Assembly (NCBI GenBank): GCA_050084515.1 | Contig: CM114271.1 | Coordinates: 35,712,001 to 35,776,000, forward strand | Length of the DNA stretch: 64,000 nucleotides | Direction: 5' to 3' | Origin: Blasia pusilla | Taxonomy: Eukaryota | Shown: piece by piece, positions 19,067-59,286 of the stretch | How the letters are laid out: every line of letters starts with the position of its first letter | Numbering within the stretch: position 1 is the stretch's first letter | The notes under the pieces: generated by a model | The model's input: the letters and a program-made list of their open reading frames with translations, nothing else | Told to the model about the DNA's origin: nothing | Databases searched by the model: none | Translations under genes and position numbers: made by a program

Positions 19067-19079
19067 AACCTCCCCCCAT

Positions 19080-22000
19080 TTAAGACACAACGTCCTCGTT
19101 GTGAGAACTTTCAAACTCTTGCACTATTAATGGTGCGTTCGCCAAGTTGGCTGAGGGTTCCCATGTGGCCTCAAATAGTGGATATCCTTTCCACTGGACC
19201 AAATATTCAACTCGTTGGTGATGAGCTCCTCGAGTGCGTTTCTTCAAGATACGTTCCACTTCAAATTCTTCATGATCTCCGACTATTTGAGGAAGTGGTG
19301 GAGTGACAATATTGTCCTTAAATCTTTTAGGGCGTGGAATAAATGGTTGAAGAAGAGAGACATGAAACACAGGATGGATTTTCATATGCATCGGTAGGTC
19401 TAGCTTATACGCCATGGCGCCCACTTTTTGTAGTATAGTGAAAGGCCCAATATAGCGAGGATTAAGCTTACAAACTCCTACTAATGATAAATTGGTTGTT
19501 GCTAACCAAACCTTGTCCCCTTCACAAAACTCGACATCTCGACGATGAGCATCTGCATATTGTTTTTGTCGATTTTGGACAATAACCAACTTCTCCTTAG
19601 TAAGTTGAACCCCTTTCTGAATTTGGTCCACAAACTCATTAACTGCAGCTACCTTTGTAGGTTCCCCCAGACTTTTCCCTATTCGAGTGAGACTAGAAGG
19701 AATTGAAGGATGCTCGCCATGCATTAAAAAGAACGGTGTGATCTTAGTGGAAGAGTTCATGGAGTTATTGTATGAGAACTCTACTAAGGGTAACAATGAG
19801 TCCCATCCTTGTTGATCCTCCAATGTTAAGGCGCATAACATTTCCTCAATAGTACGGTTGGCCCTTTCAGTTTGTCCATCAGTTTGAGGATGATAAGCCG
19901 TAGATATGGCTAGTTTAGTTTGGAGCAATCCGAATAAAGCCTTCCAAAATAAACTCGTGAAATGGGTTCCCCTATCAGTGATTAGCACTCTAGGGAGACC
20001 ATGATGGACAAAGACTCTCTCGATGTAGATCCTAGCCAACTCTGGTGCAGTCACAGTCTTCTTGGTCGGACGAAGGTGTATCATCTTGCTTAGTCTATCC
20101 ACAAAGACCACAATAGAGTCATATCCCGTGATCGCACATGGTAGCTCACAAACAAGATCCATAGTGACTTGTTCCCAACGTTTTTGAGGTATTGGGATCG
20201 GCTGCAACAATCTTGCTGGTTTTGTGTTACTAGCCTTGATTTGTTGATAAATCCTACAACTCCTTACATATATGTCAACATCTTCTCTCATTTTGGGCCA
20301 ATAGTATGCTCGTTGTACTCCTTCTAAGGTTTTTTTCAGCTCCCAAATGACCCGCAATGACTGTGTCGTGAGCTTTAGACAATACTTCAGTGCATAATTG
20401 TGGATCTTGTGGGATCCATACTTTACCTTTATGGAAAACCAATCCTTGAGCCTTATATACTCTGTTGGCATGAATAGCCACTGCAATTTCTTCATCCTCC
20501 TTTGTGGCTTTGGATAACTTTTTCCACCAACTAGAGTGAATCTCCACTTCAGATATGTTATTCATCTGTGATATACGAGTCAAGGCGTCTGCCAACTGCT
20601 TCTTTCCTTCCACATAGATAATTTTCATCATGAATTGTTGTCGCCATTCTGCCCATCGAATTTGTCGTTTGGAGAGCTCCTTCTGGGACTCTAAGTAGAC
20701 CAAGGGCTTGTGATCAGTCTCCACCACAAACTCCTTATCGCCCAAGTAATGTTTCCAATGCTTGGTTGCCAACATAATAGCAAGTTCTTCTCGCTCAGTT
20801 GTATGGTAGTTTTGCTCCGTTGGCAATAGCTTGCGAGAAAAGAAGGCAATAGGATGCCATCCATCCTCCCATTCTTGTTGTAGTACTCCTCCAATGCTAG
20901 TACCTGAAGCATCTGTGGCCAACTTAATGGGTCGATTAGGATCATACCACTTCAATATAGGGGCTTTGATCAAGGCATCCTTTAATGATTGAAAAGCAAT
21001 CTCTTGTGATGTGCCCCAATTCCATTTTTGTCCTTTCCCTAGTAAAGTGTTATGATTGTGCAATTTGAGCAAAACCTTTGACAAATCTTCGATAGAATCC
21101 TGTTAACCCTAGAAAACTCTTCAATTGAGTTTGATCCTCAAATGCACTCCATTTTTGGATCGCTTCTACCTTCTCACTCATCACTTGGATACCTTTTGCG
21201 CTTACTCGATGCCCTAGATAATCAACTTCTGTTTTACCGAACTCACATTTTGACGCTTTAGCATACAACTCATTATCTCTTAGGATTTGAAGGACTTCTC
21301 GTAGATGATTTATATGCTCCTCTATCGTTTTACTATAGACTAAGATATCATCTAAGAATACAATGACAGACTTGTCTAAATATGGACGAAAGATATCATT
21401 CATTAGGCCCATAAAGGTTGCATGTGCATTAGTAAGACCAAATGGCATGACTAAGTATTCAAAGTGTCCATATCTAGTACAAAAAGCAGTGTTGTACACA
21501 TCTTCATCCGCAATTCGAATTTGATTGTAGCCGCTACGAAGGTCAAGTTTGGTGAAGTATTTTGCTCCTTGTAGTTGGTCGAACAAATCATCCATTCTTG
21601 GTAATGGATATTTGTTTTTGATTGTTTGTTGATTCAGTGCTCGATAGTCGATACACAGTCGCATGCTTCCATCCTTCTTTTTCACAAAAAGGACAGGGGC
21701 TCCATATGGCGAGACGCTTGGTTGGATGAAGCCTTTCTGCAACATCTCCTCCACTTGGGCTTTGCATTCTTCTAATTCTCTTGGAGCTAAGCGGTAAGGA
21801 GCTTTACATGGTGGTGTGCTTCCTGGAAGGATCTCAATCTTGTGGTCTACCCTCCGTTTGGGTGGTAACCCTGATGGTAAATCATTTGGGAATACATCTT
21901 TGTATCCCTCCAATACTTCTCTCAACTCGTCTAGTACCTCGGAATATTTTTTCAAACCATAAACATCTCTTATTAAACCTAGGAAATATATATCTTGATG

Positions 22001-22447
22001 TTTGATGGCGGTTTTTCCTATTACATATAGGGGTAGGGTTCTAGGACGTGATCTGACTCTGTCTACGTAAAGCTTCCACTCTCGGGTCTTCACAATCTTT
22101 TTTCTCCAATCTACCTCTGGATTATACTGTTCCATCCAAGGCATTCCCAAGATAACATCATAACGTGCTAACCTAATGACCTTCATCTCCAACTCTTCCA
22201 GATACTTTCCTATCCTCAACTCTACCCTTCGAGGAAGCTTCTCAATCTTTTCTGTTTGCCAATTTGGTAATTCTACCTCTTCTTTCTGATCCCTCTCTAA
22301 AGCTAAGCCCAATTTCATAGCTATGGCTCTTGAAAGGAAGTTTTCTGTTGCCCCAGGATCAATCAACACTCTAACTTGGGATCCTTCTACTTCCCCATCT
22401 ATAACAATGAGACATGTTTCTCCTCTCTTCAAACCATTTACCTCCAT
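19080..22447 (-). pseudogene. pol: Chromovirus pol (protease, RT, RNase H, integrase, chromodomain), frameshifted
   Basis: Protease [32 protein letters not shown]; RNase H TDAS..GGVL; integrase HD..IAGHLG, MDLV, TDRG, QTER; GPF motif; chromodomain EFEVERIL..YLVQWKGY..ATWEP. Split over ORFs 21050-22447, 20275-21084 and 19080-20495. Confidence 0.93.
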
Positions 22448-22456
22448 ATGTTTGTG

Positions 22457-23628
22457 TCAACCCTCGCCTTTCCTCCTTTTGTTAGAACCAATATATTTTG
22501 TAGGCGCGACATCGTGGTTGGCGTTTCTTCGAGGTCCGCCTTCTTCGTCATCTTCCTGCATATGCCCTCCTTCAAGATGATTAAGGGGGCGACGATATGG
22601 CCTATTTCCGAGCCTACGAAGACGACAATTCATGGCTATATGACCATATCTACCACACTCAAAACATTGGCGTGTATCTCTTCGGACTTCGAATTCTCTC
22701 CCTCCTCTAGGAATCCCGACCCCGTCGGTTCGAGGAGCAATCCCTTGTATGTTGGGGTTCCGATCTCTCTCCATTGGCACCCTTCCATTATACCTTCGCG
22801 GCGCATAACCATCTCGTGCTCGAAGGTTACCCAACTCCATGGGTGTGCGTCCGTATTGGTTGTTCATGGAAGCAACCACCTCTCCTCCTCCTTCGTACAC
22901 ATTTGCCATACGTTGGGCACATGCGATTGCTTCATTGATATCTTTGGGTTGTCTGGAATCACCTCTTGACGCACCTTCTTCTTCAAACCTCTCTTAAACA
23001 GATCGAGAGCTTCTGGCCCACTCATGTCGCGGATTTGTATCTGCAAGTCACGAAACTCTTCGATGTAGTCCTCCACAGTTCCTTTCTGCTCCAGTCGCCA
23101 TAATTTCATTCTAGTAGTGAGGATTGGATCCACAGCTTGGAAATTTTGCAACAGCCCTTGCTTCATTCCGCTCTATGTAATTTGTTGAGTTGTTTCAATC
23201 AAGGATCTCTCCCATCCTTGATACCATATCAATGCTCGATCGATTAACCAAGATCTTACGAACATCCCTGCAATATGATCATCAATGTTGAAAAGGGATA
23301 AATGAATTTCCATCCGAGTGATCCAACCCTCTAATACCCCCATGGCTCAACTTCCTTTGTACGGTTCTACCTTGCATGCCTTTGTCATTTTCAATATCAA
23401 TGAGGCTTGAGCATTCATCTCCATCACTCTTTGTGCTGCTTGGGCCTCTAATACTCGTGCCCTTAAGGTTTCGTCACTCTCCCCAGAAGTCACGACACTC
23501 GTGGTTTCCGTCTCCATCCCACCTATCGGAAGAACTCTCTCTCTCTCTACTCTCATATTTATGACCGAAGCAACTTCTTGCGCTAATTCTTGGACTTGGT
23601 TTTGACTTTGATCAAATGCAACTCTCAA
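22457..23628 (-). pseudogene. gag: Chromovirus gag, fragmented
   Basis: LEQKGTVEDYIEEFRDL...LFKRGLK (retrotransposon gag) and zinc knuckle CFECGRYGHIAMNC; broken into three ORFs. Confidence 0.88.
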
Positions 23629-24285
23629 AATCTCAATTCACGAATCATATCCCTCAAAGTTTCTTCCATGATCGCTCCGACTTTCCCCTAACCCTTTACT
23701 ATCACTCTAATATAAGATCAAGATATACACCTGCCAATTTCGCACAATAGGGACTACAAAAGGTAGTGTTGATGCAATGACTTCATCATAATACGCTTGG
23801 CCAAACTTCCTCACCATAAACTCTCTATATGCTATCGTAGGGACAAACCACATGGATTATACATCGAGTGTTAAAAAACACTTGTGGGGGCCTATTCAAA
23901 TCCATTCCCCATATCTCCTCTAAAACAATATATAAATAGTGCAATCCCACACACGATCATATGTAACAATAGGGAGGATCACCGGATAGCGAAACTCCAT
24001 CACTTGCGTCATGAAAACTTCACCAAAGTGATATACGAGGTATCTCGTGAACTAGTGTCTATCTACATATAAAAGTTTGATGGTGAACGGATTAAGAAAC
24101 GGGAAATTAGGAGCCACTCTCGCTCCCCCTCCATCCATTATCTGCAAAACAGCCCTTCCCCCTTACTCTACTTGCAGCTCTATAGCCAATGCCAGCCTCT
24201 AACAACCTATCTATTCTAAACAGTATATCATTACTTAGTCATCCTTCCAAGAGGGGTAATCCACTCTCATTGGAAGAGCAACCTT

Positions 24286-24297
24286 GCTCTGATACCA
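24286..24297 (-). promoter_or_regulatory. Primer-binding site (tRNA-iMet)
   Basis: Minus strand reads TGGTATCAGAGC one base after the 5' LTR, the canonical plant iMet primer-binding site. Confidence 0.93.
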
Positions 24298-24298
24298 T

Positions 24299-24651
24299 TG
24301 TAACTCTCCAGCTCACGGAACCACTCTAGAGTTGCTCAAAGGTAAAATGCCCTCAAGGCCTCTCCTCTTCATTTATATACTTAGAGATAGGTACAATGAA
24401 GATAAATTAGCTCTACCTATCCTTATGCCACATGTCCTACTCTCATAGCATGAGAGAATCTCCTTTGGAGTCTAATGTCCCAACCTTATCTTCCTCAACC
24501 TCATCCTTATCTCCCTTTTCACCAACCTATGGCCCCACTCTCATCTTTATCTCATGTATCTTGTCTTTTCTCTTTTTGGTTGATTCTTTCCCACTTATGC
24601 GCTTCATGTCATAGATTCTAACTTAACTATGACTAACAAAGGATGGTTACA
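24299..24651 (-). repeat. 5' LTR of the chromovirus
   Basis: Direct repeat of 18714-19066, followed on the + strand by the TSD GATAT. Confidence 0.97.
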
Positions 24652-30141: not shown

Positions 30142-32002
30142 TTCCGTGGAGTACTCGGAGTTGTGCCCTACTACTCGGGACAAAAGCAAGTGCGCTAGCG
30201 CCAATTGATTCAATCTTGTGTACAGCACGCTGATAATAACGAGTATGTATTATGCTGGGAAGTAGTTGGGCAAGCTTAGATAATTCCTGGACAAAAGATT
30301 CGTCATGATTGTTTAATTTTTCTTATGTACAGAGCCGAACAGTGTGCTATGAACGGATTCCATATCATACTGCCTGCATATTTGCGTAAGAGTCTCATTG
30401 CATACTTTGCAGTCTAGAAGAAGATGAGCTCGGAATTAAAGAGGGAGTGGTAGAAGGAGAAGACGCCGCAGCCTAAACATGTTCCCTTCGTACGTTTGTG
30501 ATCGTTGCATAATAATTGAACTTTAAAAAGTGCGATGGTTTTGTAGCGATTCCAAGTACTGAATCTGCCCAATTTGCGAAACATGTGGGTGCCTAGTCGG
30601 TTTTATTCCTCGTAGGAGAAACCGGTTTCTCTACTGCATCCATGATCCGGAGTTACTCAGGTTTTCCTGTACGTGGACGTATTGTCTCTTGGTCTTGCGC
30701 CTTACCACAGAACTTCGTTTTTTTTCCCCATCTGTGTTGTTACGATTTGGTCCTTATCCCAAACTTCTCAACAAACCTGCTTTCTGTCGAGAAATATGAG
30801 ACATCTATCCAGATGTCCCAAAATTTCCACATGTTTCTATTCAAGTTGTAGTCCATGTGAAGTAAAATGCTGGCGACACTCGTCTAGCTGCTGCTCCTCT
30901 CTTGCTTTTGAATCACAGTGAAAGAAAAAAGAAAAAAAAAGTACTACGTGTAAAATGAGGATAGAGTAAACCGGAACGAATTTGGCATGTCGAGAGTAGA
31001 TATCATCAAGGCCACACCTGCGTATAATGCACTTCGTGTGGCCGATCGGATGTCATACGTTCCCATCGGAACAACGATCTGTGCGCTCTCTTATGAAAAA
31101 AAAAACTACTTTTGGATAAGTGATTTTCTAATCACGGTGTTTCACATTCATGGCCCACCTGGCTACTTGGTGGCCCATGCACATGTCAAAGTTTAGTGCA
31201 AGCAGTGGGGAGAAGATGCCTGTCTAGTACATGGAACAGAACTGCGTTTAGGTTTACACTCGCACAACTTTAGGGAGGGAAAAAATAAAAACTTTAGAAT
31301 TTCGAGTAGAGGGCTACTAGGTAAGAGTAAATCCATCGCAAACAATTAGCATGAGGTCCTCAAGTAGGCGTCGCGTAAAGTATTCTTTCGGTTATTTATA
31401 CTATTATTGTACATTATTATTAGATTTTTTTTTATTGTATCATTGTTGAAGAGTTACTTGGATTTGGAAATAAATGCATGATGAGCTAACACGAAATTAT
31501 TTCTTATTATTTTTAATATCGCTTAGGGGTTGTGGGATAGTGTTTTTATTAAAGAAATTCAGAACTTCTATGGATCATAACTAAGTTTAGAAACCATATA
31601 ACTGAGTTTAGGAACCATGTTGAAATTGTGTTATGCTAAGTTTTCATTGGAATAGATAGACATCTAGCTGATAAGTCTGGACCCATTTTGTAGAGGTTCC
31701 ACTAAAGCCATAATAAAGGAATTGAAGGTACCATCAACCAAGGTACCTACTATTTCCAAAAGGGAGACTTCACTTCTTATAGAAGTATATTTTTCCCCTT
31801 AGAAACTCCTCTAAATGTCAAATACAACTCTAATGGAACACCGAAGATCATTTTTTTCTTGTGGTTCACTTTTTATAGGAGCAATCCAAAAGAATTTCTC
31901 TTTTATCTTACTACTTATATTGAACCTCCCAATGTTTGGTTAACAAGGTTGTACGTGGACAAAGTCTGTCTCGAGAACGGACATGTCTGTGCGCATGGGA
32001 GT

Positions 32003-32770
32003 TGTCGTGCGCACATATATCGCTACACAACATACATCGCTATCATCGAACACACACACAAACACACACGATCCCATGCTAACTCATGACATCCATACAC
32101 AGAGGCAAGAAGTACCAAAATATCTCAAATAAAGTAAGTTCCAATCTCTCTCTTCACCATCTCACACCATAGCTCTCAAAGGTGTGCACTCTCTCTCATG
32201 TCAAACCAAACCCATTCTCTTAATGAGAGGTTTGGGTTACATTCACAAGGCAAGGGACCATAGCTCCGCCGCCTTATGCCAAGAAGTTCAAAAAAGAAAG
32301 AATGAGCTCTCAAGCTCTCTCTCTTGGAGGTATACCCCCTTCCCTCTCCCAAGCCCTCTCAACGGTAACCTATGCTCGTAGGTCACCTCCTTGATTCTTG
32401 ACCTGCTGTAGCGGGTTAAGGGCCACTTCCCAAAGTGTAAATTCAACTATCCCCAACATGGAAACTTACCCGAAATAGTAAATTTCTCTATATGGCTCCA
32501 AATGAGCCGAAACGAAAGGGGAACCTGCTCTCTCAGGTTTCCCGGGGCCTCAACAGGTCATCCTCAACCTCATGGCCCTGTCCTCCACTACTCGTGTAGA
32601 CGCTCTGCTAGATCCCACCGATCTATCCTAGCAGTCGTGACAGCTGTCGTGGGCATACACATTGCTACACAACATACATCGTTGTCATCGAACACATAGA
32701 CAAACACACACGATCCCATGCTAACTCATGGCATCCATATACAGAGGCGAGAAGTACCCAAATATCTCCA
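32003..32770 (-). repeat. 3' terminal a-b-a repeat block of copy 1
   Basis: a = 32003-~32127 and a' = 32645-~32770 (~125 bp direct repeats) enclose b = ~32130-32642. The b/a' junction on the + strand reads GTGACA-gc-TGTCGTG. Confidence 0.9.
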
Positions 32771-32958
32771 ATCGCACCCCTAGCTGGTGGTTAGGTCCCT
32801 CTAACTCCAGATAGCCATCTATCCCTACCTACCACGACATACATCTCTAGGACGCTAAGAGCACAAAGGCCGGGTGCTCGTATGGCCCCATCGTTAGTCG
32901 CCTTCATCTCATCCATGTCCCAAAAAAAGTCAAAATCGAAACCTACATAGTATCTCCT

Positions 32959-34212
32959 CTATGTACATGTGGGACATATCCATCGTCCCCGAGGAACCCT
33001 AGTGAGAGATGGCGTCAGACATGCCATATGCAAACCTCTTGAACATCCATCACAGACTAGCATCGTGGCCGTACTACGAGCAGAACCACACAACATACAA
33101 CGCAAGCCTGCAGGAACTACTGTTGAGCTCGGATCTAATGTACCATTAATGTTAGGAAGGTGACATAGCGCATAATTACGCACATGGTCCTTCCATACCA
33201 TACCATACCATCGTGTCCCTCCAGCAAGAGAACACCGGATGGCAAAACGTCACGCATTCTCAAGAGTGCGCCCTGCAGTCACATCCAACATTGTTGGTGC
33301 CGTCTGCTGCAAGTAGACATAATCTCCCTGATGAAACCTCCGAATAGTTGGTCGATAACCACCACCCCAAATAGTCGCATACCTCAACGTATCCCAATAC
33401 TGTGGAATCGCCAAGTTCTCGAACGCCATGGGCATCACTCTCTGAAACAACTCAGCCCTCTTAGAACATGCTCGCATCCATACATCTGGGTCATCAAGGT
33501 CCAGCACCTCACCAGCATCTCGACAAATGGCCTTAGGTAAATCTGGCTCTCGGCCATAAAGTAGCAAGTACGGTGAAAAAGACGCTAAGGATGCTTGCCT
33601 GCTGAATCTGTATCCCATCGCCAACCACGGCAACTAGAGGTCACAATCTCCTAGGTGACCTCTCTGCAAGCCATACTTGCGTAAACCCCTCTTCACCGTC
33701 TACAAAACTCTCTCCGCTAATCCATCTGCCTTGGGATGATCTCGCGAAGTCGTGCAGTGGTCGATCAACACCTAATCACACAAGGCCTAGAACTCACCGC
33801 GAAACTCGGTACCCTGGTCTGTCAACACCTTAGTCGGTGCGCCATAATGACTCAGCACTATGTCAAGGAAGGCATAAGCTACTCCCTCACTCGCTTTTTC
33901 AGGAAATGCAACCAACTCGATCCACTTCGAGAAGTGCTCGACCATTACCAACACATAACGACTCTGACCCTTTGTCAAAGGCAAAGGTCTTGCAAAATCC
34001 AAACTCCATCTATATCCTAAGCCCATGATCGATAATGAATGCAACTGTGGAGTCGGAGCATTGAACGATGCTCGGACCCGATCACACACCATGCACCTGG
34101 CAACAAGCTGCTGAACGTCACTCTGCATGCCTCGCCACCAATACTGAATCTGGAGCAAGCTGTACATCCGCTTCACCCCAAAGTGACCCAACTCCTCATG
34201 GGCATGCTGCAC
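32959..34212 (-). pseudogene. DDE integrase with C-terminal PHD finger (copy 1)
   Basis: HHCC domain HAHEELGHFG...CMVC; core WSLDF, VEHFSKW, LTDQGTEF; SPYLLLYGREP; then C4HC3 PHD CMLC..MLVCDGCSRGLHMACLTPSLTRVPRGRWICPTC*. Confidence 0.92.
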
Positions 34213-34215
34213 TAG

Positions 34216-35900
34216 TCATGCTCTCTGCAAAGGATGCGGCACTACGCATACTCTACCATCCTCCCAAACCCTCAAAACATGTGTCCCCTCCCAACGGAAC
34301 CGTCTGGCCCGTTGTAGGATCCGATCCCGCTCTCTAGCACACACAGTGCTCGCAACACCGCCAGTACGAAGGTACTCCAAGACAACTCCATCATCATGAA
34401 TATATTGACCACCTGTCGTCTCCTCACTAGCCTCAGGATCCAAGGACTCTCCACTAGACCTTGCCATCAAAGTCTCCACACTCTGGCTCTCCATAGCCAA
34501 CATGCCTAAATAGGCTGACGCGTGCCATCCTGACAGTGACTCCTCATCACTCTCTCCATGCCATTGAGCTCCAATTGCATCTCGCTGACTCGGGCATGGG
34601 TTACCACTCAGCCCATGTGCATCCTGGTTGAGCGTCCCAGGTATATGTACCACCTGAAAATCGTACTCCTGTAGCAACAGAGCCCATCTCGGAAGCTTCC
34701 TTGTAAGCTTGTCGGACTCCACCAACCACTTCAGTGGTTGATGATCAGTGATGATGGTAAAGGGGTTGCCAATTAAGTAACACCTGAAATGCGCGACAGC
34801 CCATACTGCAGCCAAGCACTCACCCTCATACGAGCTGTACTTTGCCTCTACAGCATTGTTCGAGCGGCTAGCGTAAGCCACCACAAACTCTCTACCCTCA
34901 TCATCATGCTGGGTGAGCACCGCTCCAAGCCCCAACATGCTCCAATCTCTGTGCAACTGGAAAGGACGCCCCCTGATCGCTCTCCTCAAGATGGGCACAG
35001 ACGTCAACCTATCCTTGAGCAACTGAAATGCTCGCTCCAACTCATCCCCTCAGTGCCACTCGTGATCCACCTTGGTCAGCAAGGTTAGCGGCTTCGAAAT
35101 CAAATGAATCCCTTGACGTACCACCTATGGAAGTTCGCCAATCCTATGAATGCACGAACACGGCTCACATCTATAGGGCGTGGAATGCGTGAAATAGCCT
35201 CTACCTTCGTATGTTGAACACCAAGGCCCCCTGGGTATATCGTATGACCCAAGTACTCAATCTAGTCATAGAAGAACTTGCACTTTCCTGGATGTAGCTT
35301 CAGCCCATGTAATTGAAATGGTCGAAACACCTCCTCTAGATGTCGCTTATGCTCCTCAACCGTGGCGCTAAAGACTACGATGTCATCAATTTAACACCTA
35401 GCAAAATCAAGAGCAGCCAAGATTCTATCCATGACCCTCTGAAACTCAGCCGGGGCGTTCTTTAACCCAAATGGTAAGAACCGCCACTCGTACAAACAAT
35501 CCTTCCCGTGAGGATTGATGCCCCGAAATGCCGTCTTCTGCCTGTCCTCCAATTTGATAGGCAGCTGATGATATCCGGCTTGCAAATCCGATGAATTGAA
35601 GACCTTTGCGTGACCAATCGCATCAAAGATCTCTTTAGGGGTGGGCATGGCATACCTATCGGACTTCATCTGCCGATTGATAGGTCGGTAATCCCCACAC
35701 ATCCGCCTATCCGTCCAGTTTCCATGCACATCCTTCTTGGCGGGCATGACAGTGGTAGATACATGCTACCCATGCGACATCTCCACTAGTCCTGCTCCGA
35801 CCAACTCCTTGCTCCTACTCTGAATCAGAGCCCTCTCCATATCACTGTACATGTAGGATCGTCGGAAGATCGGCGTATCACTTGATTACTCAATGTGGAT
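34216..35900 (-). pseudogene. Reverse transcriptase and RNase H (copy 1)
   Basis: RT RMCGDYRPIN, DLQAGYHQ, LPFGLKNAPAEFQR, C*IDD; RNase H HRDWSMLGLGAVL, YSSYEGECLA, ITDHQPL. Confidence 0.93.
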
Positions 35901-36369
35901 CCCCGGTCCCTTCAGCGTATCCAAATCCTCCATGCTAAATGCAAAGCAGCTCCTATAACTCTGAGGAACTGATGTAACTGGCACCGCTCTCCTCCTGTCA
36001 ACTTAGGGCCCATATCTGGCTCCCAAGTCTCCATCGTGACTAAGGTAGGACTCTCCAGCGCGGATATCGGTGGTTGCTATGGTGCAACCCCATCTTGAAC
36101 AACAACACTTGGCCGCGCTCCTGCAGCCAACTACAAACTCTGGTCTCCTCCACGTGCAGTGCCCGGAACCACGCTCGATGCTGTGGCTATCATCTCCTGG
36201 AGTACCTGCAAAACATTCCAAGAAGTCCAAGAGTGTCTCTCTCGATCTCCCCTGGTGTGTAGATCTCCTCGGGTCTCGCCCCCAGCCACTGCCTCCACCG
36301 TCTCAGTAGGCATGGGGCTCACCAACGCAACCGCTGAAATCTGTCACGATCTCATAAGGCGCTGCTCAA

Positions 36370-37490
36370 CCACTCCCAAGCTGAGGATTCATGTCAAATA
36401 GTTTAGGTCCATCGCTTGACCGAAGACATGGCGTCGTGATGCCTCTGACACTGACGATACTACCGTCACTCCTTTGGGAAATCCCATCGCTCGCTCTCTC
36501 TCTCGTTGGCATTGGGCTCCACCAACCGCTGAACCTGGTCATCCCAAACAAAGCCAGGACCGGCCTCCTTGTATGCATAGGAAGCGGGAAAACTCACAAA
36601 CGTGGGCAAGGCTTCCCGCGGCTTGCCTACCCTATTGACCACAATCAACGGTGGTCAATCATCGTGCCTCATTGCTTGTGATTGACGACTTGGATCCAGA
36701 ATGGAATCCACTAACAAATCGAAGTGGCGCTCCACTCTTGCATATGCCCTCCGTAACACCGCATGGGGCACCAAGTTGGTCCACCATAGACGCGGGCAAT
36801 GGGCTCTAGAACCTACACTCGCTGCATCCTAGAACACATCCAAGAACATCCAAGAACATCCAAGATCCAAGAACATCCAAGAACATCCAAGAACATCCAT
36901 CCAAGAACATCCAAGAACATCCATCCAAGAACATCCAAGAACATCCAAGAACATTCATCCAAGAACATCCAAGAACATTCATCCAAGAACAATGCAGGGC
37001 CGATCCAGGCACGCACATGATGAGCACTCGTCACCACCCATGACATGGAATCTCCTAAGATCGGCACATTCTCCAGAATGTAGGCTGGAGAACGAGACTG
37101 GAGCTCTTGCAACTACCGTAAGACCGTCAACATCTCCCAAATAACCTGGACCGAGTGTCACCCAACCCGTTGCCTCGTCCATCACTCGATTGGCCTTGAC
37201 ATGGCCAACCGACAAAGGCCAAATCAATGGTCCCTACCCGCTCTAAGTCCTGCGCCCCCAACAACGAAATATCCCTCGGTAGGAAACTTTGGTACCCCTG
37301 TACCGCGGACACAAACAATAAGTCGGAAAAATATAAGCATAACTACGCCACATGTCGTAGTAAGACGCGCCTCGCAACATCATCACTCTCCACATACAGG
37401 TACTGCTGCACTCGCACTCTTGCCTGCAAAACAACAGCTAACCCGGTGCTAATCCCTCCTTAGAGATCTAACACTCGAATACCCTCCTCC
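36370..37490 (-). pseudogene. DNMT3-like C5-cytosine DNA methyltransferase domain within pol (copy 1)
   Basis: Motif I GIRVLDL*GGISTG; II YLYVE; III DI; IV IDLAFVGWPCQGQS; VI YILENV; VIII RAHCPRLWWTNL; IX-X region EPNANERE... Confidence 0.92.
36825..36990. repeat. CATCCAAGAA tandem-repeat expansion inside the DNMT domain
   Basis: Imperfect array of a 10-bp unit with 14-bp variants. Copies 2 and 3 have a single unit at the equivalent site. Confidence 0.95.
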
Positions 37491-37840
37491 GGGATACACC
37501 ACACAATAGGTGTGGTATCCAAGGGTATCATCGTAGCACTCCCTGCTACCTCGGGTTCCTCAGACCCGTCTTACTCCGGTGCAAACGCCTCGCTCCACGC
37601 GGTCTACACGTGCTCTTGTGCCAATCGTCGAAGCTCCTCAGTCGAGCCCCACAACAACACCTCTCCTCCACGGAATGATGCGGCTACTATAACACTCCTC
37701 TCCATAGAAATGTCAGGAATGGGAATATCCTCTGCATGGACATGTCCCTCAATCAAATCACTAGGCCAAGTGATGGCATTGCTAAATGTTGCTAAGGTCG
37801 CCACCTCTCTTGGACGTCGCTCAATCACTGCATATGTGAA

Positions 37841-38230
37841 TCAAACGTGTAATAAGCTAAGGCACCCATCACCTGACTGCCATCCTGGTCTGTAGGACGC
37901 CGAATCCTCCCAGGAATCGAGGGAAAACCCCATTGGATATAACACTACTCCACCAACCAAGACGTTGTAGGACTTTGCATGAGTCACTATCGCCTTGGCT
38001 CGCACCATAGACTCATCTGTAGGATGTCCCGGGCGAATCCTCACCACGACCTCCTTTCGGGTGATATACTGTGTGGTACTCGCTCCACCCAAGGATGTCT
38101 GTATCCGGAATGGACAACGCTCCACATCGGCTCTCGTTAAGCCCAATCCTTTGAATGACACTTTCCCCAACATCAGGGGTTGCACTCTTGAATCCAACAA
38201 GACACGCTACGGACTAAAAGCTCTATCTCC
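37841..38230 (-). pseudogene. Retropepsin aspartic protease (copy 1)
   Basis: RVLLDSRVQPLMLG (decayed LLDSGA motif) and the C-terminal YNVLVGG motif. Confidence 0.8.
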
Positions 38231-38933
38231 GAGACTCACCAAGTGAAAGACCTCTCCTTGGTTATCCAACTATTCAACACCAGGAGAAGCCATGGGATGC
38301 TCTATCGCGGGTCTAGCGGGCATCTCCGCCATCCTAGTAGCTGCAGCCTGCCATGAATCTGACGTGGACGACCCGAGCATCTGCTCCAAGGGCAGGTCCA
38401 TCACCTCCTCTGCAATCACCTCTAAATGTGATGCAGGAACTCCAACTCCGCGCTCACATAGTGAAGCGGCCAGCCAAAAAGCCTCGGCGGGTGTAGCCCC
38501 CAACGTCATAACATCAGAAGTAGAAAATAAAAGAGTGCAGTACACAACGGTGGCCGCCCCCAACAACGTGCTCGACACATGCCCCTCATGAGCATCAACA
38601 ATAGGAGTCGTCGCACTCGCTTCTCCCATCGCCCTACGTGCCTGCACACCAACAACATCACCAACTCTCCAGGAACTTTGATGAGGACCCATCGATGGGG
38701 TCCTCATTGCTTCGGACAACGAAGAAAGATTGAGAAAGCCTATTCTATTTTCTGGCTTCCCCTCATTGTGGATCCAAGTCTACGGCTGCTCCACACGTCA
38801 CAACTGCAGCGGCCTCCATTTGGGCAACCCCGCACATCCAACCAGGATCCTCCATATCTGTGGCTCCTCCATATGATGTCGATGCCATGGATCCGGCATC
38901 GGGTAACCTCGATGCCATAGCGGCAATCTGCTC

Positions 38934-40293
38934 CTATAGCTGTTGTATCTGAGCAGCCATCCCAGCCTCACGTGCGGCGTCTCCCTCGACGCGTCTAGGT
39001 GGTGGGACTCTACCTCCTCCACGGGTAGCTCCACCACCCTGTCGGACAACTCCAGCTCCGTGTCCCCCGAAGAGACCACCCGGTGCACGACCTCTGGGCA
39101 CACTCGGACCGGCTACTCGCTCCGGTGCCCTCTCTGGCCCTCGGTCCGGACGTAACTCAAGATGTAAACTGAAACACCTAGCGCGTGTATGACCATACCT
39201 CTGACAATAGTCACACTGATAACCTCCTGGTGCAGCACCATCTCCTCCTCCATGCTGAGGCATACGTTCATGACCCTGACGAGTGCAATCGCGCTGATGA
39301 TAGGCTCCACCACATGACCAACAAGTAATAGTAGGCGGCTGCTGCTGAGCCGTATATGAAGGCGCAGGTCTCTGTGGCACGGCCTCTTGGTATCCTCTCT
39401 GAGCTCGTGGTGCCACAATTGACCTATCTCGGAGTCCACGTTGCTGTACAGGTGGAACAGCCAATCGTGACTGCTCTCGCCCAGAACCCATGGTGGCTAC
39501 GCTCTCCTCCGCCATGTTGTGCTCAATGTTCTCGGCGGTCCTAAAAAAATCTCTTAACGTAGGGGAGGTGTTCATAAGAAGCACCCCCTCCCGCACCCGT
39601 GTCCGTAGGGTCCGATCCAACATCGCATACCATGACTGGATAGCCTGAGCCTCTGTCACCTTGAGTGACGTTGATCAACGGGCGCAAGCGAGTGTAAGCC
39701 TCACGCAAACTCTCACTTGGGCGCCTCTGGAAGTCGTGGATGCTCCTCAAATTCTCCGTTCGTACCCCTTGGTATCTCGCCCTCAACTCAACAAAGAACT
39801 CAACCACAGGGTTGAACGTGGGACAAACCCGACTAGACGGTGCAACTACTCCAGTGCGAGTGACTCCTCCTAAAACGTCACTAGTGGAAGAGGAAGTAGC
39901 CTCTCCTGACTCCTCCTCCTTATATGGGAACGGCTCCGTCCATAACACATAATGTGGGTCATAGTAGAGCCTCCACGCCTCGATCTCACGTGCATATCTC
40001 TGAGAGAACTCATGGTAATCGTCCATGGGCGCCCCCTCTAAATGCTAGAACATACCGTTCCATGCTGTAAACGGGTTGAATTCTCTAGAGTTCCTGGCTC
40101 GTTGGGAGTCGCACCAACTCCTAAACTCTGCTATGAAATCGTGCAACTCAATCGTGCATACTGCACCTGAAAACCTGCGCGGTCCTCTATCCCGGTTGTC
40201 CATCTCGTACGCCCAACTGGTAGGACCACTCACAATGTGTGGTGATGTGCTCACAAACTCCTCTACACCCTCCCCCTTGTCTGACGATGACAC
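38934..40293 (-). pseudogene. gag: gag with two zinc knuckles (copy 1)
   Basis: FQRRPSESLREAYTRL (gag-like); knuckles CWSCGGAYHQRDC and CDYCQRYGHTRARC; frameshifted. Confidence 0.8.
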
Positions 40294-41249
40294 AGAAGGA
40301 GGTCGAGGTGGTCCCTCACGTAGAGACCCTTAGAACCTCGCCCCACTCCGCGTAAAACCTCTAGAGCTACTCTCGAGTTCACCACCTCGCCTCTCAAAGT
40401 CCCGAATGGACGTCGTGATGACCCTCGTGCCCCTCTCACCCGATCACTCTCAACCTCGCGAGTAATCCCTCAATCAATCATCCCAAACATGCGGCACTTG
40501 ACCAGACTATCTTCTCATCGACAACCTACCCTCAACTCCGGACATCCCACACAGGTCTATGTCCCCTAAACCACATACATGAATGATGCTCTCAGCATCC
40601 ATACAACCCAATATCCCTAAATAAACTACCAAAATCCCAAAATCCCTCACACGTGCAGGGTAAAGGACCAGAATGGGTAACCTGAACACATGTCAATGTC
40701 GCTCCTCAGCAACTGCAAATCTTGATCCCAGCTTGGTCGTGAAGACAACTCCTCCAAATCAGCAAGTCGTACTCCTCTCGTATTGACACTGCTCAACCTC
40801 CTTGATGTGCGGTGCAAGTCAAGCGGTCCGGTGCAGCATTGGTGGCACGAAACGACTACGAACACCACGGCACTCGAGAATAGGGTGCGGCACTTGGCGG
40901 CATACCCTCCTCAATCAGCAATTCACACGCTCTGCTCCTTAGTGAAGGAGCGGTTCCGCAATTAAGACCGTGCGATACGGCGTAGCAATCCGTGGCGCAT
41001 TGCGGCTACGGGCGTCACTGCACGGTACTCGATCGTCGTCGAGCGGATACCAATCACAACATAACAACATGAAAAGCTCAAACACCATAATTGGAGGTCA
41101 TCTGCCATCACTGGTTGATGACAAAACTGTGACGACGGTGGTAGCCAAAATAAAGTACGTGGTGGCGACGCAAGTCAAAGAATCAACGAACGTTGTGGAA
41201 GACCCTCCATTCCGTAATGGTAGCAAGGGCAACCAAAGGGTGGACAACG

Positions 41250-41380
41250 GACGGTGGACCGTTGACGGTGATGGCCGACCGTTGATGGTGACGGCCGAGC
41301 GGTGACGGTGATGGTTGATGGTGACGGTTGACCGATGATGGTGACGGTTGACCATTGACGGTGACTATGACCGTGGCGGT
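41250..41380. repeat. Low-complexity GACGGT/GATGGT repeat in the 5' leader of copy 1
   Basis: Repeated GTTGACGGTGATG-like hexamer variants. Confidence 0.75.
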
Positions 41381-41927
41381 TGGTTTAGGATTTGAATAAT
41401 TTAACCCTAAAATTGCCTAGCAATGGCAGTTTTGCAAGATTGATCATAACTTTTTGCTCGCAATCCAAATTGCACACTGTTTGTTGCACATCGTGCACAG
41501 CTTCACAATCTACAACAGCGTCAAAAAATATTTAGAATCAAACATTCCAGTAAAAACTGACGGGGATTGTTGTAAAGCCCAATGTCTCTTTCTCCTACAC
41601 AAAATTTGGCAACGCTTCCGCGCTGATTTCTCCCAACGAAAATGTAAAACCTGTAAAAATACAAATCAGCAAGCTACATGGTGCACTCGAGAGCGCCGGT
41701 ATGGGGCAAGCCACCCCCATAATCAATTCTTATAAAAAATTGGGCAGCGCTTCCGCGCGCCACTCTTCCACACGAAAAATCGGCAAATGCAAAGAACAAT
41801 CAAAGCAGCCCTTGCTCCGGTGAGAACTCTCTTGAGCCGCTGAACGGTGAACACGGTCCCCAACCTGAAAAAATAGCGAGTGACCAGAGACCTCCCCCAT
41901 GAAGCTCTCTCATTCTCTCATTCTCTT

Positions 41928-42443
41928 TGTAAAGTAAGATCCAATCTCTCTCTATACCATCTCACACCATAGCTCTCAAAGGTGTGCACTCTCTCTCATG
42001 TCGAACCAAAACCACTCTCCTAATGAGAGGCTTGGATTACACTCACAAGGCAAGGGACGATAACTCCGCCGCCTTATGCCAAGAGGTTCAACAAAGAGAG
42101 AATGAGCTCTCAAGCTCTCTCTCTTGGAGGTATACCCCCTTCCCTCTCCGAAGCCCTCTCAACGGTAACTCTATGCTCGTAGGTCACCTCCTTGGCTCTT
42201 GACCTGCTGTAGCGGGTCAAGGGCCACTTCCAAAAGTGGAAAGTCAACTATCCCCAACATGGAAACTTACCCAAAATAATAAGTTTCTCTATATGGCTCC
42301 AAATGAGCCGAAACGAAAGGGAAACCTGCTCTCTCAGGTTTTCCGGGGCCTCAACAGGTCATTCTTGACCTCCTGGGCCTATCCTCCACTACTTGTGCAC
42401 ACACTCTGTTAGATCCTACCGATCTATCCTAACAGTCGTGACA
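41928..42443 (-). repeat. 5' terminal repeat (b only) of copy 1
   Basis: Direct repeat of ~32130-32642 with about 40 differences in ~515 bp by eye (~92%). No copy of segment a and no TGG primer site follow it. Confidence 0.92.
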
Positions 42444-44203
42444 GAGTTCCCGTGGCCCGCATCCGAGCCTTTGTCATTCAATTTGTAGACCGCATCGGGC
42501 GTGTTAGGTCCCGCTTCATGGAGGAGTCCTACCACGTCGCAGACGAGTTGGGCCTTGATCGGGCCGGCATGCATGCTCTAACGTCCACATCGAGCCCGCA
42601 AGACCCCTATTGGAAGCCCAAAAAGGGCCGCACGCATGGCTTGCACCCAACATCCAATCCGTGATCGCCATATGGCACCTTGCAAGTGTTTTTGTAGACT
42701 TGCATCCAACTTGCCAATCAAAGATTGCCACTTGGTGCCTTGCAAGTCATCCCCTTGACCCACGTCCTACAAAACCCGTGAGGAAACGTGGTGAAGTTTC
42801 ATTGTTGGAGGCTAAAAGAAATTCAACTCCTCCCTTTCTAACTCCCAAAATGGGTTTTAAACGAAAATCCATAAGGAATTGAAAGGGCTCACAAGTGGAG
42901 CCCAAAATGCTCTTAAGTGGATGAATAGGCCTAATTAACTCATATTTTCACCATTTTCACCATTTCTTTGAGAGCACAGTATTTTTGGATTCGGCCCTAA
43001 ATTTAATTCGTGCCTTGAGAGCTTAGGGCTTTCAACATTGCTAGGAATTTTGGGGAAATCTATTGCGTGCCTTGGGGTCCGGGATAGTTAGATTTTGTTT
43101 ATGACCAACTTGGATATTTGTGCTCCTTGTTGTGTCTCAAACAAAGTCTAATTTATTCCACATTAGGTGAGAGATTGTCGATGTGGAATTCTTTTGTGTC
43201 AGTGTCTCTTTTTTGGTGATTTTGAGAACTCCAATTTATGGTCTCGAGTTTAGATTTGTTTCATTGGCTTTCCTTACCACATTGAGGATATGGAGGTGGT
43301 CAAGGAAACTTATCTGAGCGCGCATATATTCCCTCTAAGTGCTTAACCCTAAACCTAGATTCCACATTCTATCAATTACGTTTTTCATCTTTTTAGTACT
43401 ACCTAATCTCCACCTTTAGATTTCTTTGGTTGGTTGTGTAGGAAATCTTCCTATCTTCTTTCTTTGAGCTATATGTTTAGTGGGGTTGAGTCATTGGAGG
43501 TAAGAGATAACCAAATGGAGTCGAGTGATAGTTTCAAAAGGTAAAAACTCAATTCCAGGATTGACTTTAACATGGCTACAAGAGAGGCATGGATCGACAA
43601 GTTTTTCTAGCTTACATTAGAGAAGAGATGATACTATATTTCGAGGGGTATGGATGGTTTCCATGACTACACCTTGGAATCGCAAAGATTTTCTATGAGA
43701 GTTTCAGAGTCAAGAAACTAGGAATTCAAGGCCAAAGAGGCCCAAAGGTTAAGTGCATTTTGTGCCCAACAAGGTGTTCACTTGGAGAAAGCATATGTTG
43801 ATCTTAAGACATACAAGAAGGAGAAGCCCATTGTTGCTAATTAAGACAACTCTACTAGAAAGATTTTGTGCAAAGTTAAAATACTCAACATTTTTTTAAG
43901 GGATATAATAGTTCAGTGGAGAGGATATTCGTAGTTCCACGTGGATGTATGTGGATTTTTAACCAGGATACAATAATAGGACATAATCTTGAGGATACTT
44001 TGGGCTTAGGTTGACATGGAATCGTGTGCAATTGTAAAGTAAACCAAACCCTTGGCTTTAGTGAAGATATTTAAATTACTATTGCATGAAGGTGTTTAAG
44101 GAAGCATTTTGATTATATTTAAGACAATCAATGATGCGTGAGGAGATTTTTGCTATCTTACATCAAGGGATGGTTGAATTATGGTTCTGTGGTGGTTGAA
44201 TTA

Positions 44204-46070
44204 TGACCCAGGTACTCAATCTGGTGGTAGAAGATTTGCACTTGCCTGAAGGTAGCTTCAGCCCATGTAATTGAAATCGTCGGAACACCTCCTCTAGATG
44301 TCGCTCATGCTCCTCAACCGTGGCGCTAAAGACTATGATGCCATCAATTTAATACCTAGCAAAATCCAGACCTGCCAAGATTCTATCCATCACCCTATGA
44401 AACTCATCCGGTGCGTTCTTTAACCAAAATGGTAAGAACCGCCACTGGTACAAGCAATCCTTCCCATGAGGATTGATGCCCCAAAATGCCGTCTTCTGCC
44501 TATCAGCAACTGATGGTATCCGGCTCGAAGATCTAACAAACTGAAGACCTTTGCATGCCCAATAGCATCAAAGATCTTCTCAAGAGTGGATATGACATAC
44601 CTATCGGACTTCGTCTGCCAATTGATAGGTCAATTATCTCCACACATCCGCCTATCCGTCCAATTGCCATGCATATCCTTCTTGACGGGCATGATAGTGG
44701 CAGATGCATACTCTCCATGGGACATCTCCACTAGTCCTGCGCCAACCAAGTCCTAGCTCCTACTCTGAATCAGAGCCCTGTCCATGTCACTATACCTGTA
44801 GGGTTGTTGGAAGAACGGCGTGTCACTCAACAACTCAATGCGGATCTCTCGACCCTTCAGCGTACCCAAATCCTGCATACTAAATGCAAAATAGCTCCTA
44901 TAACTCCTAAGGAATTGGTATATCCGGCGCCGCTCTCCTTGTGTCAACTTAGGGCCCATATCTGGCTCCCAAGTCTCCATCGTGACTACAGTAGGACTCT
45001 CCGGTGTGGGTGTCGATGGTTGCTATGGTGCAACCCCATCTCGGATAACAAAACTCGACTGCTCCCCTGCAGCCAATTGCAAAATCGGATCTCTATGTGT
45101 AGTACCCGGAACCACGCTCAATGTTGTGGCTACCATCTCCTCGCGTATGTGCAAAACATCTCACGAAGTCCAAGGATGTATCTCCCAATCACCCTCGGTG
45201 TGTCGATCTCCTCGAGTCTTGCCCCAAGCCACTGCCTCAACCATCTCGGTAGGCATGGGGCTCATCAATGCAACTGCTATGATCTGTCGTATCCTCAAAC
45301 GAGGCTACTCAGCTACTCCTAAGCTGAAAATCCATGTCAAGCAGTTCAAGTCCATCGCGTGACCCAAGACATGACGGTGATGCCTCTGATAGTGACGGTA
45401 CTGCCGTCACTCCTGTGGGGAATCCCATCGCTCGCTCTCGCTCATCGGCGTTGGGCTCCACCAACCTCTGTACTTGGTCATCCCAAACCAAGCCAGGTCT
45501 GCCTCCTAGACTACATAGGAAGCGGGAAAACTCACCAATGTGGGAAAGACTGCTCGTGGCATGCCAATCTTGTTGACCACAGTCAACGACGGTCGATCAT
45601 CTAGCGTCACTGCCTGTGATCGACGGCCCGGATCCAATATAGAATCCACCAGAAAATCGGAGGGACACTCCACTCTTGCATATGCCCTCTGCAACACCTC
45701 GTGTGGTACCAAGTTGATCCACCAACGACGCGGGCGATGTGCTCGTGAACCCACACTCGCCGCATCCAACAAAACTTTTGGGCCGATCCATGCGCGCACC
45801 TGATATGCACTCGTCATAACACGGGACCTCGAATCGCCCAAAATTGGTACATTCTCCAGAATGTATGATGGAGGACGAGATTGATGCTCCTACAAGTGTC
45901 GCAAGATCCGCATCATCTCCCAAAACAACCTGGACCAAGAGTAAGCTAATCCGCTACCCCGTCTAGCACTCGACTGGCCGTGACATGGCCAACCAGCAAT
46001 GACCAAGACTATGGTCCCTACTTGATCCAAGTCCTGCGCCTCCAACAATGAAATGTCCCTTGATAGGATA
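44204..46070 (-). mobile_element. Internal fragment of the DNMT-gypsy family, copy 2 (DNMT motifs III-X, linker, RT)
   Basis: DISLLEAQDLDQVGTIVLVIAGWPCHGQS, YILENV, RAHRPRRWWINL, EPNADERERAMGFPTGVT, then RT. Collinear with ~35240-37280; truncated at both ends. Confidence 0.92.
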
Positions 46071-53949: not shown

Positions 53950-54699
53950 TGTTGTGCGCACACACATTGCTCCACAACATTCATCGTTGTCACCAAACAC
54001 ACACACAAACACAAACGATCCCATGCTAATTCATGGCATCCAAACACGAGACAAGAAGTACCAAAATATCTACAATTCAATCAAGATCCAATCTCTCTCA
54101 ACACCATAGCTCTCAAATGTGTGCATTCTCACATGTCTCTCTTAATGTAAAACCAAACCCTCTCTCTTAATGAGAGGCTTGGTTTACACACACAAGGCAA
54201 GCAAGACCATAGCTCAACGGCCTCTTGCAAAGAGGTTCAACAAAGAGAGAATGAGCTCTTAAGCCTCCCCTCGAGGTATACCCCTCCCCTCTCCCAAGCT
54301 CTCTCCATGGTAACCTATGCTCCCAAGTCATCTCCTTGGCTCTTGACCTAATATAGGAGGTCAAGGGACACTTCCCAAAATAGAAATTCAACCATATACT
54401 TAAAATGGTATCTACCAAAAATAGTAAGTTCCTCAATATGACTCCAAATGAACCGAAACAAAGGGGTTTCCCGGGGCCGCAATAGGTCATCATCGACCTT
54501 CTGAGCCTGTCCTCCACTACTTGCAAAGGCGCTCGACTAGATCTCACCGATCTATCCTAAAAGATGTGACAGTTGTCGTGCACATACATATCGCTATATA
54601 ACATACATCGTTGTCACCAAACTTACACACAAACACGCACAATCCCATGCTAACTTATGGCATCCAAACAACGAGACAAGAAGTACCAAAATATCTACA
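53950..54699 (-). repeat. 3' terminal a-b-a repeat block of copy 3
   Basis: a = 53950-54074, b = ~54075-54571, 2-bp spacer GT, a' = 54574-54699. In element orientation a' is preceded by CTAGGGGGGCGAT (54700-54712, polypurine-tract-like) and starts TGTAGATAT. Confidence 0.9.
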
Positions 54700-59170: not shown

Positions 59171-59286
59171 CTCTCGGATGCACCAGACAATCGGGGTGGT
59201 GTCCAAAGGGATCATAGTAGCACTCGTGCCTACTTGGGATTCCTCTGACTCCTCACAATCTGGTGCAAACGTCTTGCTCTAGGCGG

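Follow-up and report, generated by a model that had tools for sequence, protein, structure and literature searches.

Decayed copies of a Gypsy-DNMT3 retrotransposon, with a DNMT3-like methyltransferase domain inside pol, in the land plant Blasia pusilla

In this study, we analysed a 64-kb stretch of Blasia pusilla DNA (the window, which here always means this whole stretch), in which three related retrotransposon copies lie on the minus strand. These copies very probably represent a Ty3/gypsy family of the Gypsy-DNMT3 kind, which encodes a single gag-pol polyprotein consisting of gag, a protease, a DNMT3-like cytosine C5-methyltransferase (referred to below as the DNMT), reverse transcriptase (RT), RNase H, a DDE integrase and a PHD finger, which carries its repeats in an A-coding-B-A-B arrangement and which is bounded by a 4-5 bp target-site duplication. 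According to the same reading, the three copies are old and dead, the DNMT is an integral and selected part of pol, and relatives of the copies are abundant in the host and transcribed in the sense direction. The Gypsy-DNMT3 kind is already known: de Mendoza et al. (2018, PMC5890265) described KnitGypsy-Dnmt3 from the alga Klebsormidium nitens, and the window element is a further member. An earlier sequence-only reading of this DNA had pointed to a precedent from Klebsormidium, and this precedent is real.

Self-BLAST of the window was used to find the copies, which have mutual identities of 76-87% (Table 1). The sequence-only reading had placed a DNMT-bearing retrotransposon at 32003-42443, and the ends that we determined for copy 1 agree with this interval within one base. 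The Pfam matches in copy 1 follow the order RVT_1, RT_RNaseH, Integrase_H2C2 and rve, which is the order of Ty3/gypsy elements and is found likewise, with Asp_protease in addition, in intact relatives. Integrase_H2C2 (3.8e-16) and rve (2e-10) were both matched on the piece at 33787-34215; the open reading frame (ORF) at 33250-33633, for which Pfam alone gave no match, was recognized as integrase by its translation and by a colinear tblastn frame extending over 34761-32965. Phage_integrase was not matched by Pfam on any ORF of the element that was scanned. For the window protease piece itself Pfam returned no protease family; its translation aligns with the protease of the relatives P0001 and P0004, and its position corresponds to that of the Pfam Asp_protease_2 match in the intact relatives P0225, P0226 and P0049. 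Similarly, the window gag piece, which was delimited by tblastn with P0004, gave only a weak Pfam zinc-finger match, and zf-CCHC is present in the intact relatives. ORFs on the opposite strand at 40946-41735, between gag and the 5' long terminal repeat (LTR), had no Pfam match. The window copies are old, dead insertions. Copy 3 additionally contains an unrelated 2.3-kb insertion, which is AT-richer, sits between the protease-linker region and the DNMT and has no Pfam match in its two longest ORFs.

The sequence-only reading had also described a C5-methyltransferase between protease and RT, and the pieces on which this description was based are present in the ORF lists and were recovered by Pfam and tblastn. 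The copy 3 ORF at 58595-59086 (163 aa) matches the C5-methyltransferase family PF00145 DNA_methylase with an E-value of 1.9e-11 and 44.4 bits, the cut-off being 22, and the copy 1 piece at 37127-37342 (71 aa) reaches 20.6 bits, just below this cut-off; the remaining short DNMT pieces, four in copy 1 and three in copy 3, gave no DNA_methylase match when scanned singly. With the intact relative P0001 as tblastn query, motifs I to VIII/target recognition domain are colinear on copies 1 and 3, and copy 2 is covered from just before motif IV onward, at 58-62% identity throughout. P0001 stops short of motifs IX-X, which were placed on all three copies with the relatives P0004 and P0007 and which are legible in the copy 1 ORF at 36389-36538. 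The copy 1 protease shares a frame with the first half of the methyltransferase, stop codons being the only breaks. Over the compared stretch 37603-36194 the copy 1 DNMT has about seven in-frame stops and three frame changes, one of them across a tandem-repeat insertion for which self-BLAST found no counterpart in copies 2 and 3. The copy 3 DNMT has about seven stops and two frame changes, and that of copy 2, which is truncated at both ends, has three stops.

To which branch of the C5-methyltransferases the domain belongs was addressed at the level of sequence, fold and catalytic residues. In a search of all PDB chains with a profile built on ten sequences of the family, DNMT3A (1e-19, 73.6 bits), DNMT3B (2e-18) and DNMT3C (2e-17) scored highest, followed at a lower level by tobacco DRM (1.5e-10), DRM2 (3e-9), M.HhaI (7e-7) and DNMT2 (3e-3), and no DNMT1 or chromomethylase chain was among the 56 PDB matches at E<=1. 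The alignment to DNMT3A is colinear, running through motifs I-VIII and then IX-X, whereas the DRM chains align through their C-terminal half only, as is to be expected of a circularly permuted enzyme. This permuted order of the plant DRM enzymes, with motifs VI-X before I-V, is not found in the element domain. For the intact relative P0007, which is 42% identical to the window ORF, a model was made with AlphaFold from 47 aligned sequences; its mean predicted local distance difference test score (pLDDT) is 79, with values above 90 across the domain. A Foldseek search with this model returned DNMT3A/B/C chains in every listed row to rank 50, with a template modelling (TM) score of approximately 0.8, normalized to the target. 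Among 35 aligned members of the family, the catalytic Cys-Gln, the Glu of the ENV motif and the motif VIII Arg are each conserved in 90% or more. Pfam scans of nine full-length or long relatives revealed no PWWP or ADD domain. A comparison with the ESM Atlas gave generic C5-methylase clusters only (one streptophyte and two phage), and a length-matched search with the family profile gave 13 proteins with no cellular DNMT3 among them. The sequence-only reading had called the domain DNMT3-like, unpermuted and unlike DRM, and both the profile scores and the structural matches uphold this view; judged from its sequence, the element domain is an unpermuted C5-methyltransferase of the DNMT3 type, with predicted activity.

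It could be imagined that this domain was captured passively, being either a piece of a host DNMT3 or an insertion nested in pol, and drifts neutrally, and the many stops and frameshifts in the window copies would be in line with such an origin. In a codon-wise comparison of the copies, homology to outside proteins set the reading frame, and stops as well as codons with gaps were left out. The ratio of nonsynonymous to synonymous substitution rates (dN/dS) of the DNMT is 0.25 for copy 1 versus copy 3 (95% confidence interval 0.19-0.33) and 0.25 for copy 1 versus copy 2 (95% confidence interval 0.18-0.35), as compared with 0.98 and 1.24, and 0.90 and 1.32, respectively, in the shifted frames. 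The segment has thus not evolved neutrally, and its value equals that of the RNase H-integrase region (0.25), with 0.31 for RT, 0.45 for gag and 0.49 for the protease plus linker in the comparison of copies 1 and 3. As part of the divergence is neutral and postdates insertion, the true constraint was stronger than these values indicate. Furthermore, the intact relatives P0225, P0226 and P0049 each consist of one ORF of 2188-2374 aa, within which the methyltransferase lies in frame, and their Pfam matches comprise zf-CCHC, Asp_protease, DNA_methylase, RVT_1, RNase H, Integrase_H2C2 and rve. The placement and frame of the DNMT are alike in these three ORFs, in the three window copies and in at least ten metagenome loci, and the family profile matches 522 protein clusters at E<=1e-30. 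In view of these findings passive capture is very improbable, and the methyltransferase is an integral pol domain under selection and not a captured passenger. The sequence-only reading had named three outcomes that would speak against it, and none of these was obtained: the methyltransferase HMM gives a match, intact relatives have the domain in frame, and its dN/dS differs from the neutral value.

The repeats of the element are arranged in an unusual manner. The two LTRs of copy 1, A1 and A2, are 92.0% alike by self-BLAST (41930-42444 versus 32130-32643) and are separated by a Kimura two-parameter (K2P) distance of 0.083, with 28 transitions and 12 transversions, that is, they are approximately 8% diverged. 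A repeat search revealed in addition a direct repeat of 131 nt on both sides of A2 (32000-32130 versus 32642-32772, 89% identity). A1 has no adjoining B, and the layout of copy 1 is therefore A-coding-B-A-B; the B-A-B part is common to copies 1 and 3. The additional B repeat beyond the 3' LTR departs from the canonical form of Ty3/gypsy LTR elements, and a G-rich tract is found upstream of B1 and not of A2. The presence of GAGTT just outside both A1 and B2 indicates that the whole unit, including B2, was inserted as one piece, and a 4-5 bp duplication surrounds the entire A...B-A-B unit as a DDE integrase would produce it. One metagenome locus (L030) has A1 and B1-A2-B2 and is itself flanked, at the corresponding ends, by a 4-5 bp duplication, and B-A-B is present in another (L005). 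In five elements, namely copies 1 and 3 and the metagenome loci L004, L005 and L030, the B1/A2 junction (at 32643-32645 in copy 1 and around 54573 in copy 3) consists of the element's 3' end, two letters and its 5' end, and in all of these except L004 the G-rich tract lies just upstream of B1. We note that the B1/A2 junction resembles an end-to-end joint that was retained inside the element. There is a hint that the internal repeat copies may restore the element ends during replication. Joints seen in DNA reads (32123-32284/41930-42086 and 32128-32130/32777) are as expected from ambiguous placement on repeats A and B, and nothing was drawn from them.

Three stranded RNA-seq runs of the host species were mapped to copy 1 at a likeness of at least 90%, which gave 3109, 2907 and 3315 reads and coverage of all 30 bins, with a depth of about 10-40 in the DNMT bins. 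Assuming that the libraries are of the usual stranded type, there is a 10- to 20-fold bias toward element-sense RNA. Since most of the reads are 90-99% like copy 1, it is transcription of the family that these data establish, and not transcription of the copy 1 locus. At one frame break in the DNMT, 13 of 17, 13 of 18 and 9 of 16 reads in the three runs differ in length from copy 1, and at another break this is the case for 17 of 25, 15 of 21 and 29 of 51 reads, which indicates that the transcribed relatives are unbroken at these two places. A DNA run of the host gave 202,700 contig records on the element; this depth cannot be read as a number of copies, but it indicates that the family is very abundant. 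Its transcription is in the sense direction. This abundance also bears on the idea that we are dealing with a domesticated host gene, that is, a cellular DNMT3 with retroelement-derived parts, for which it can be said that some relatives, such as the Marchantia MARPO models, have been annotated as ordinary genes. With terminal repeats and target-site duplications present, three decayed copies within 32 kb and neither PWWP nor ADD in the scanned relatives, we find this idea hardly credible.

Relatives of the family are numerous. A search of 1.84 billion representative proteins with the family profile matched 13,232 clusters at E<=1e-3 and 2,255 at E<=1e-10; the best 150 clusters all have E<=2.3e-75, and many of these are 1000-3456 aa long. 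When the window domains were mapped on 240 retrieved proteins with a DNMT match, the DNMT was found after RT/RNase H or directly before the integrase in 157, after the protease or before RT in 22, and in 61 the order was indeterminable. Four of the 22 (P0057, P0061, P0107 and P0113) were rejected from the second class, as their "RNase H" match covers the pre-integrase linker only, and they belong with the RNase H-DNMT-integrase group. The order RVT_1-RNaseH-DNA_methylase-Integrase-PHD was confirmed by Pfam in P0012, P0015 and P0019; P0020 has equal flanking Pfam domains without a DNA_methylase match, and its methyltransferase part is known from the family-profile match.

The two placements of the DNMT correspond to a division in the domain trees. 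In a FastTree analysis of 233 domain sequences, from which rows covering <40% of the profile had been dropped, both window ORFs fall within a clade of 34 rows with a support of 96, which contains 18 protease-side sequences and 16 whose order is unknown; no sequence of the RNase H-integrase class falls in it. An IQ-TREE analysis, which is unrooted, was made with 71 rows (32 from this clade, five outliers and 34 of the RNase H-integrase class), and here one branch with an SH-like approximate likelihood ratio test (SH-aLRT) value of 100 parts 33 rows from 38. The smaller side, which includes the window ORFs, has 19 protease-side sequences and 14 of unknown order, and the larger side has the 34 rows of the RNase H-integrase class and four mislabelled proteins. 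Named members of the protease side are from Marchantia polymorpha (three gene models), Closterium spp. NIES-54 and NIES-68, and Calypogeia fissa. Among them, C. fissa is the closest named relative, being 66% identical to the copy 3 ORF, and was placed by FastTree only, as it is too short for the 71-row tree. On the other side the named members are Scenedesmus sp. PABB004 'pol', Haematococcus lacustris and Cymbomonas tetramitiformis. Taken by themselves, the named relatives point to a streptophyte as host, probably a bryophyte. The window integrase has a median identity of 43% to the RNase H-DNMT-integrase class, as compared with 28% to the integrase of a chromovirus that is also present in the window. 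Metagenome contigs contain relatives at 38 loci, the longer of which keep the order gag-protease-DNMT-RT-RNase H-integrase-PHD. We also observed three metagenome contigs (L022, L024 and L031) with apparently intact frames of 1997, 1654 and 1350 aa and the order RT-RNaseH-DNMT-integrase-PHD. A protein of 1974 aa with RT-RNaseH-integrase-PHD and a DNMT (P0174) is labelled by NCBI as coming from a 'Minisyncoccia bacterium' metagenome-assembled genome, and its source is almost certainly a eukaryotic contig that was mis-binned.

Taken together, these relationships allow the tentative suggestion, which we regard with some doubt, that Gypsy-DNMT3 is one ancient lineage of Ty3/gypsy elements with a PHD-integrase across the green plants and not a Klebsormidium one-off. 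In this lineage the DNMT would have moved once within pol, giving the RNase H-DNMT-integrase order in chlorophytes and the protease-DNMT-RT order in streptophytes, and the lineage would persist, transcribed and at very high copy, in at least one land plant. If this is true, a transposon-borne de novo methyltransferase and the A-coding-B-A-B form could be studied in a land plant, and the enzyme might add to the host methylome.

The element described here resembles KnitGypsy-Dnmt3 in three respects. Both have an unpermuted DNMT3-type methyltransferase within the Gypsy pol ORF, and both have DIRS-like A-coding-B-A-B repeats, KnitGypsy-Dnmt3 having been described as combining Gypsy domains with a DIRS-type repeat structure and the formula 'A-coding region-B-A-B' being given for DIRS elements in the figure legends of PMC5890265. 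Purifying selection on the DNMT is also reported in that paper, with Ka/Ks <0.2 in KnitGypsy-Dnmt3 compared with 0.25 here despite post-insertion decay. However, KnitGypsy-Dnmt3 is said there to have few copies in K. nitens, whereas the present family is very abundant, and the hosts differ, K. nitens being an alga and the nearest named relatives of the present element being liverwort and Closterium proteins. The green-algal polyproteins (KAF8056149.1 of Scenedesmus sp. PABB004 and those of H. lacustris and C. tetramitiformis) have a related DNMT, with E-values down to 1e-130 against the family profile, and share the DDE integrase with a C-terminal PHD finger, but in them the DNMT lies between RNase H and integrase, and here between protease and RT. 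SymbioDIRS-Dnmt3 of Symbiodinium likewise has a DNMT3 in pol and A-coding-B-A-B repeats, and CG methylation by this enzyme has been demonstrated in yeast (PMC5890265). In contrast to the window element, which has a DDE (rve) integrase and a target-site duplication, SymbioDIRS-Dnmt3 is a DIRS element with a tyrosine recombinase; a tyrosine recombinase and the lack of a duplication mark the DIRS order, and the window element has the repeat layout only in common with it.

With cellular DNMT3A/3B/3C the element domain shares the catalytic fold and the motif order, but it is without PWWP and ADD, is embedded in a polyprotein and is accompanied by a PHD finger on the integrase. Plant DRM2 differs in that DRM is permuted and gives a poorer E-value than DNMT3A. 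Chromoviruses, like the present family, have a chromatin-reader module at the integrase C-terminus, which is a chromodomain in their case and a PHD finger, together with a DNA-methylation writer, here. A further group, the EpiLTRs (bioRxiv 10.64898/2026.05.21.726589), also consists of LTR elements with DNA methyltransferase domains and a chromatin reader, but these are a Dam-like adenine methylase, a DNMT4-related enzyme and a chromodomain, and the authors regard the EpiLTR acquisition as separate from Gypsy-DNMT3. The words 'streptophytes (Gypsy-DNMT3)' appear in that preprint and in PMC12344493. In our literature searches we found no paper on Gypsy-DNMT3 in liverworts or other land plants, where it should be added that supplements might list more taxa, and no paper on the PHD finger, the two DNMT placements or a duplication around A...B-A-B. 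If they hold, the two cleanly split placements, the PHD finger on the integrase and the duplication-bounded A-coding-B-A-B form extend the description of 2018.

Plants defend themselves against transposons mainly by cytosine methylation, and a transposon with its own de novo methyltransferase is therefore paradoxical. It seems a reasonable possibility, if one somewhat short of probable, that the DNMT is produced within pol, accompanies RT and integrase and acts on the fresh complementary DNA (cDNA) or, during integration, on the element and the DNA around it; the new copy would then arrive pre-marked. The PHD finger, by analogy with the chromodomains of chromoviruses, might steer the integrase to a particular chromatin state. 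The idea of cDNA or landing-site methylation follows the discussion in PMC5890265. In the same paper the authors raised, for Symbiodinium, the alternative that such an enzyme acts in trans. Applied to the present family, this would mean an active DNA methyltransferase working on the chromatin of the host, either where the element integrates or across the genome, and shaping the host methylome rather than marking its own cDNA. The great number of DNA records on the element, its transcription and the PHD finger, which suggests contact with chromatin, would fit with this; however, the methylome of K. nitens is reported as ordinary despite the presence of such elements (PMC5890265), and we consider action in trans unlikely. 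A land-plant host with an abundant and transcribed family would offer a tractable system in which to look for cDNA pre-methylation, landing-site marking or an input into the methylome.

Several points weigh against the interpretation of the window copies given at the outset. All three copies are broken by stops, frameshifts and insertions, and none of them can act. A likeness to copy 1 of 99% or more is reached by only 24, 26 and 19 reads in the three RNA runs, the bulk being 90-95% alike. No primer-binding site was identified, no systematic search having been made, and the regeneration of A...B-A-B by an element with a DDE integrase is a difficulty for this reading. The kinship with KnitGypsy-Dnmt3 is based on shared architecture and repeat layout and not on a tree, and none of the proteins returned by our sequence searches was from K. 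nitens. Catalysis and the target of methylation are matters of prediction. In the sole bench test of such an enzyme, the K. nitens Gypsy-DNMT3 protein gave no methylation in yeast, a result that the authors judged inconclusive (PMC5890265). This result would also agree with the view that the domain has been retained for some function that does not involve methylating DNA, be it 5-methylcytosine (m5C) modification of the genomic RNA, nucleic-acid binding or the building of oligomers without catalysis, and RNA methylation has been suggested in PMC5890265 for a LINE-borne DNMT. Such a role is quite unlikely in our opinion, as the catalytic Cys, the ENV Glu and the motif VIII Arg are conserved and as fold and sequence are nearest to DNMT3A/B/C, which act on DNA, rather than to DNMT2.

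Table 1. Positions of the Gypsy-DNMT3 copies, their parts and a further element in the 64-kb window
Feature	Position	Strand	Remarks
Copy 1, full-length dead Gypsy-DNMT3 element	32004-42443	-	10.4 kb; self-BLAST span 32002-42444; A1 - gag-protease-DNMT-RT-RNase H-integrase-PHD - B1-A2-B2
Target-site duplication, left	31999-32003		GAGTT (+ strand), read directly; 4 or 5 bp by end setting
Target-site duplication, right	42444-42448		GAGTT, read directly
Repeat B2, 3' terminal repeat beyond 3' LTR	32004-32130	-
Repeat A2, 3' LTR	32131-32642	-	boundaries +/-3 nt
Repeat B1 and 2-nt spacer	32643-32772	-	G-rich polypurine-like tract ahead
PHD finger, integrase C-terminus	32986-33192	-	Pfam PF00628, E 1.2e-8
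Integrase (H2C2 zinc finger, rve core, C-terminal part)	33250-34215	-
RNase H and linker to integrase	34216-35049	-	Pfam RT_RNaseH 2.4e-34
RT core, largest open piece	35391-35765	-	Pfam RVT_1 2.1e-13
DNMT3-like C5-methyltransferase, motifs I-X	36347-37510	-	tblastn; Pfam 20.6 bits on 37127-37342
Tandem repeat between motifs VI and VIII	36836-36991		period 10, about 13 copies (TRF); copy 1 only
Aspartic protease region	37841-38206	-	ORF translation aligned with relatives
gag with Cys/His zinc-knuckle region	38934-40044	-	tblastn
Repeat A1, 5' LTR	41928-42443	-	in element orientation begins TGTCACGAC, ends TTTACA
Copy 2, 1.9-kb fragment	44202-46068	-	DNMT beginning shortly ahead of motif IV and reaching motif X, and RT start
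Copy 2 DNMT part	45293-46068	-	single frame, 3 stops
Copy 3, runs off window end	53949-64000	-
Copy 3 B2	53949-54076	-
Copy 3 A2	about 54077-54572	-
Copy 3 B1	54573-54701	-
Copy 3 PHD finger	54913-55122	-	Pfam E 5.7e-9
Copy 3 DNMT	58182-59278	-
Copy 3 unrelated insertion	59288-61585		2.3 kb, no counterpart in copy 1
Young chromovirus (Ty3/gypsy with chromodomain)	18712-24651	-	LTRs 18712-19066 and 24297-24651, 99.2% identical

The window contains other features besides the three copies. The young chromovirus has long open frames with RVP_2, RVT_1, integrase, SH3_Tf2-1 and Chromo domains and has no relationship to the DNMT elements; the two integrases share 28% identity. An ORF at 6891-7298 on the plus strand gave by eye the impression of the N-terminal region of a Helitron-type helicase and had no Pfam match. 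The block at 12000-16000 has a GC content of 0.51-0.52, compared with 0.35-0.40 around it, and a strong AT skew; both of its strands bear ORFs, several in all and 110-140 aa in length, two of which were tested and gave no Pfam match, and it may be another decayed repeat.

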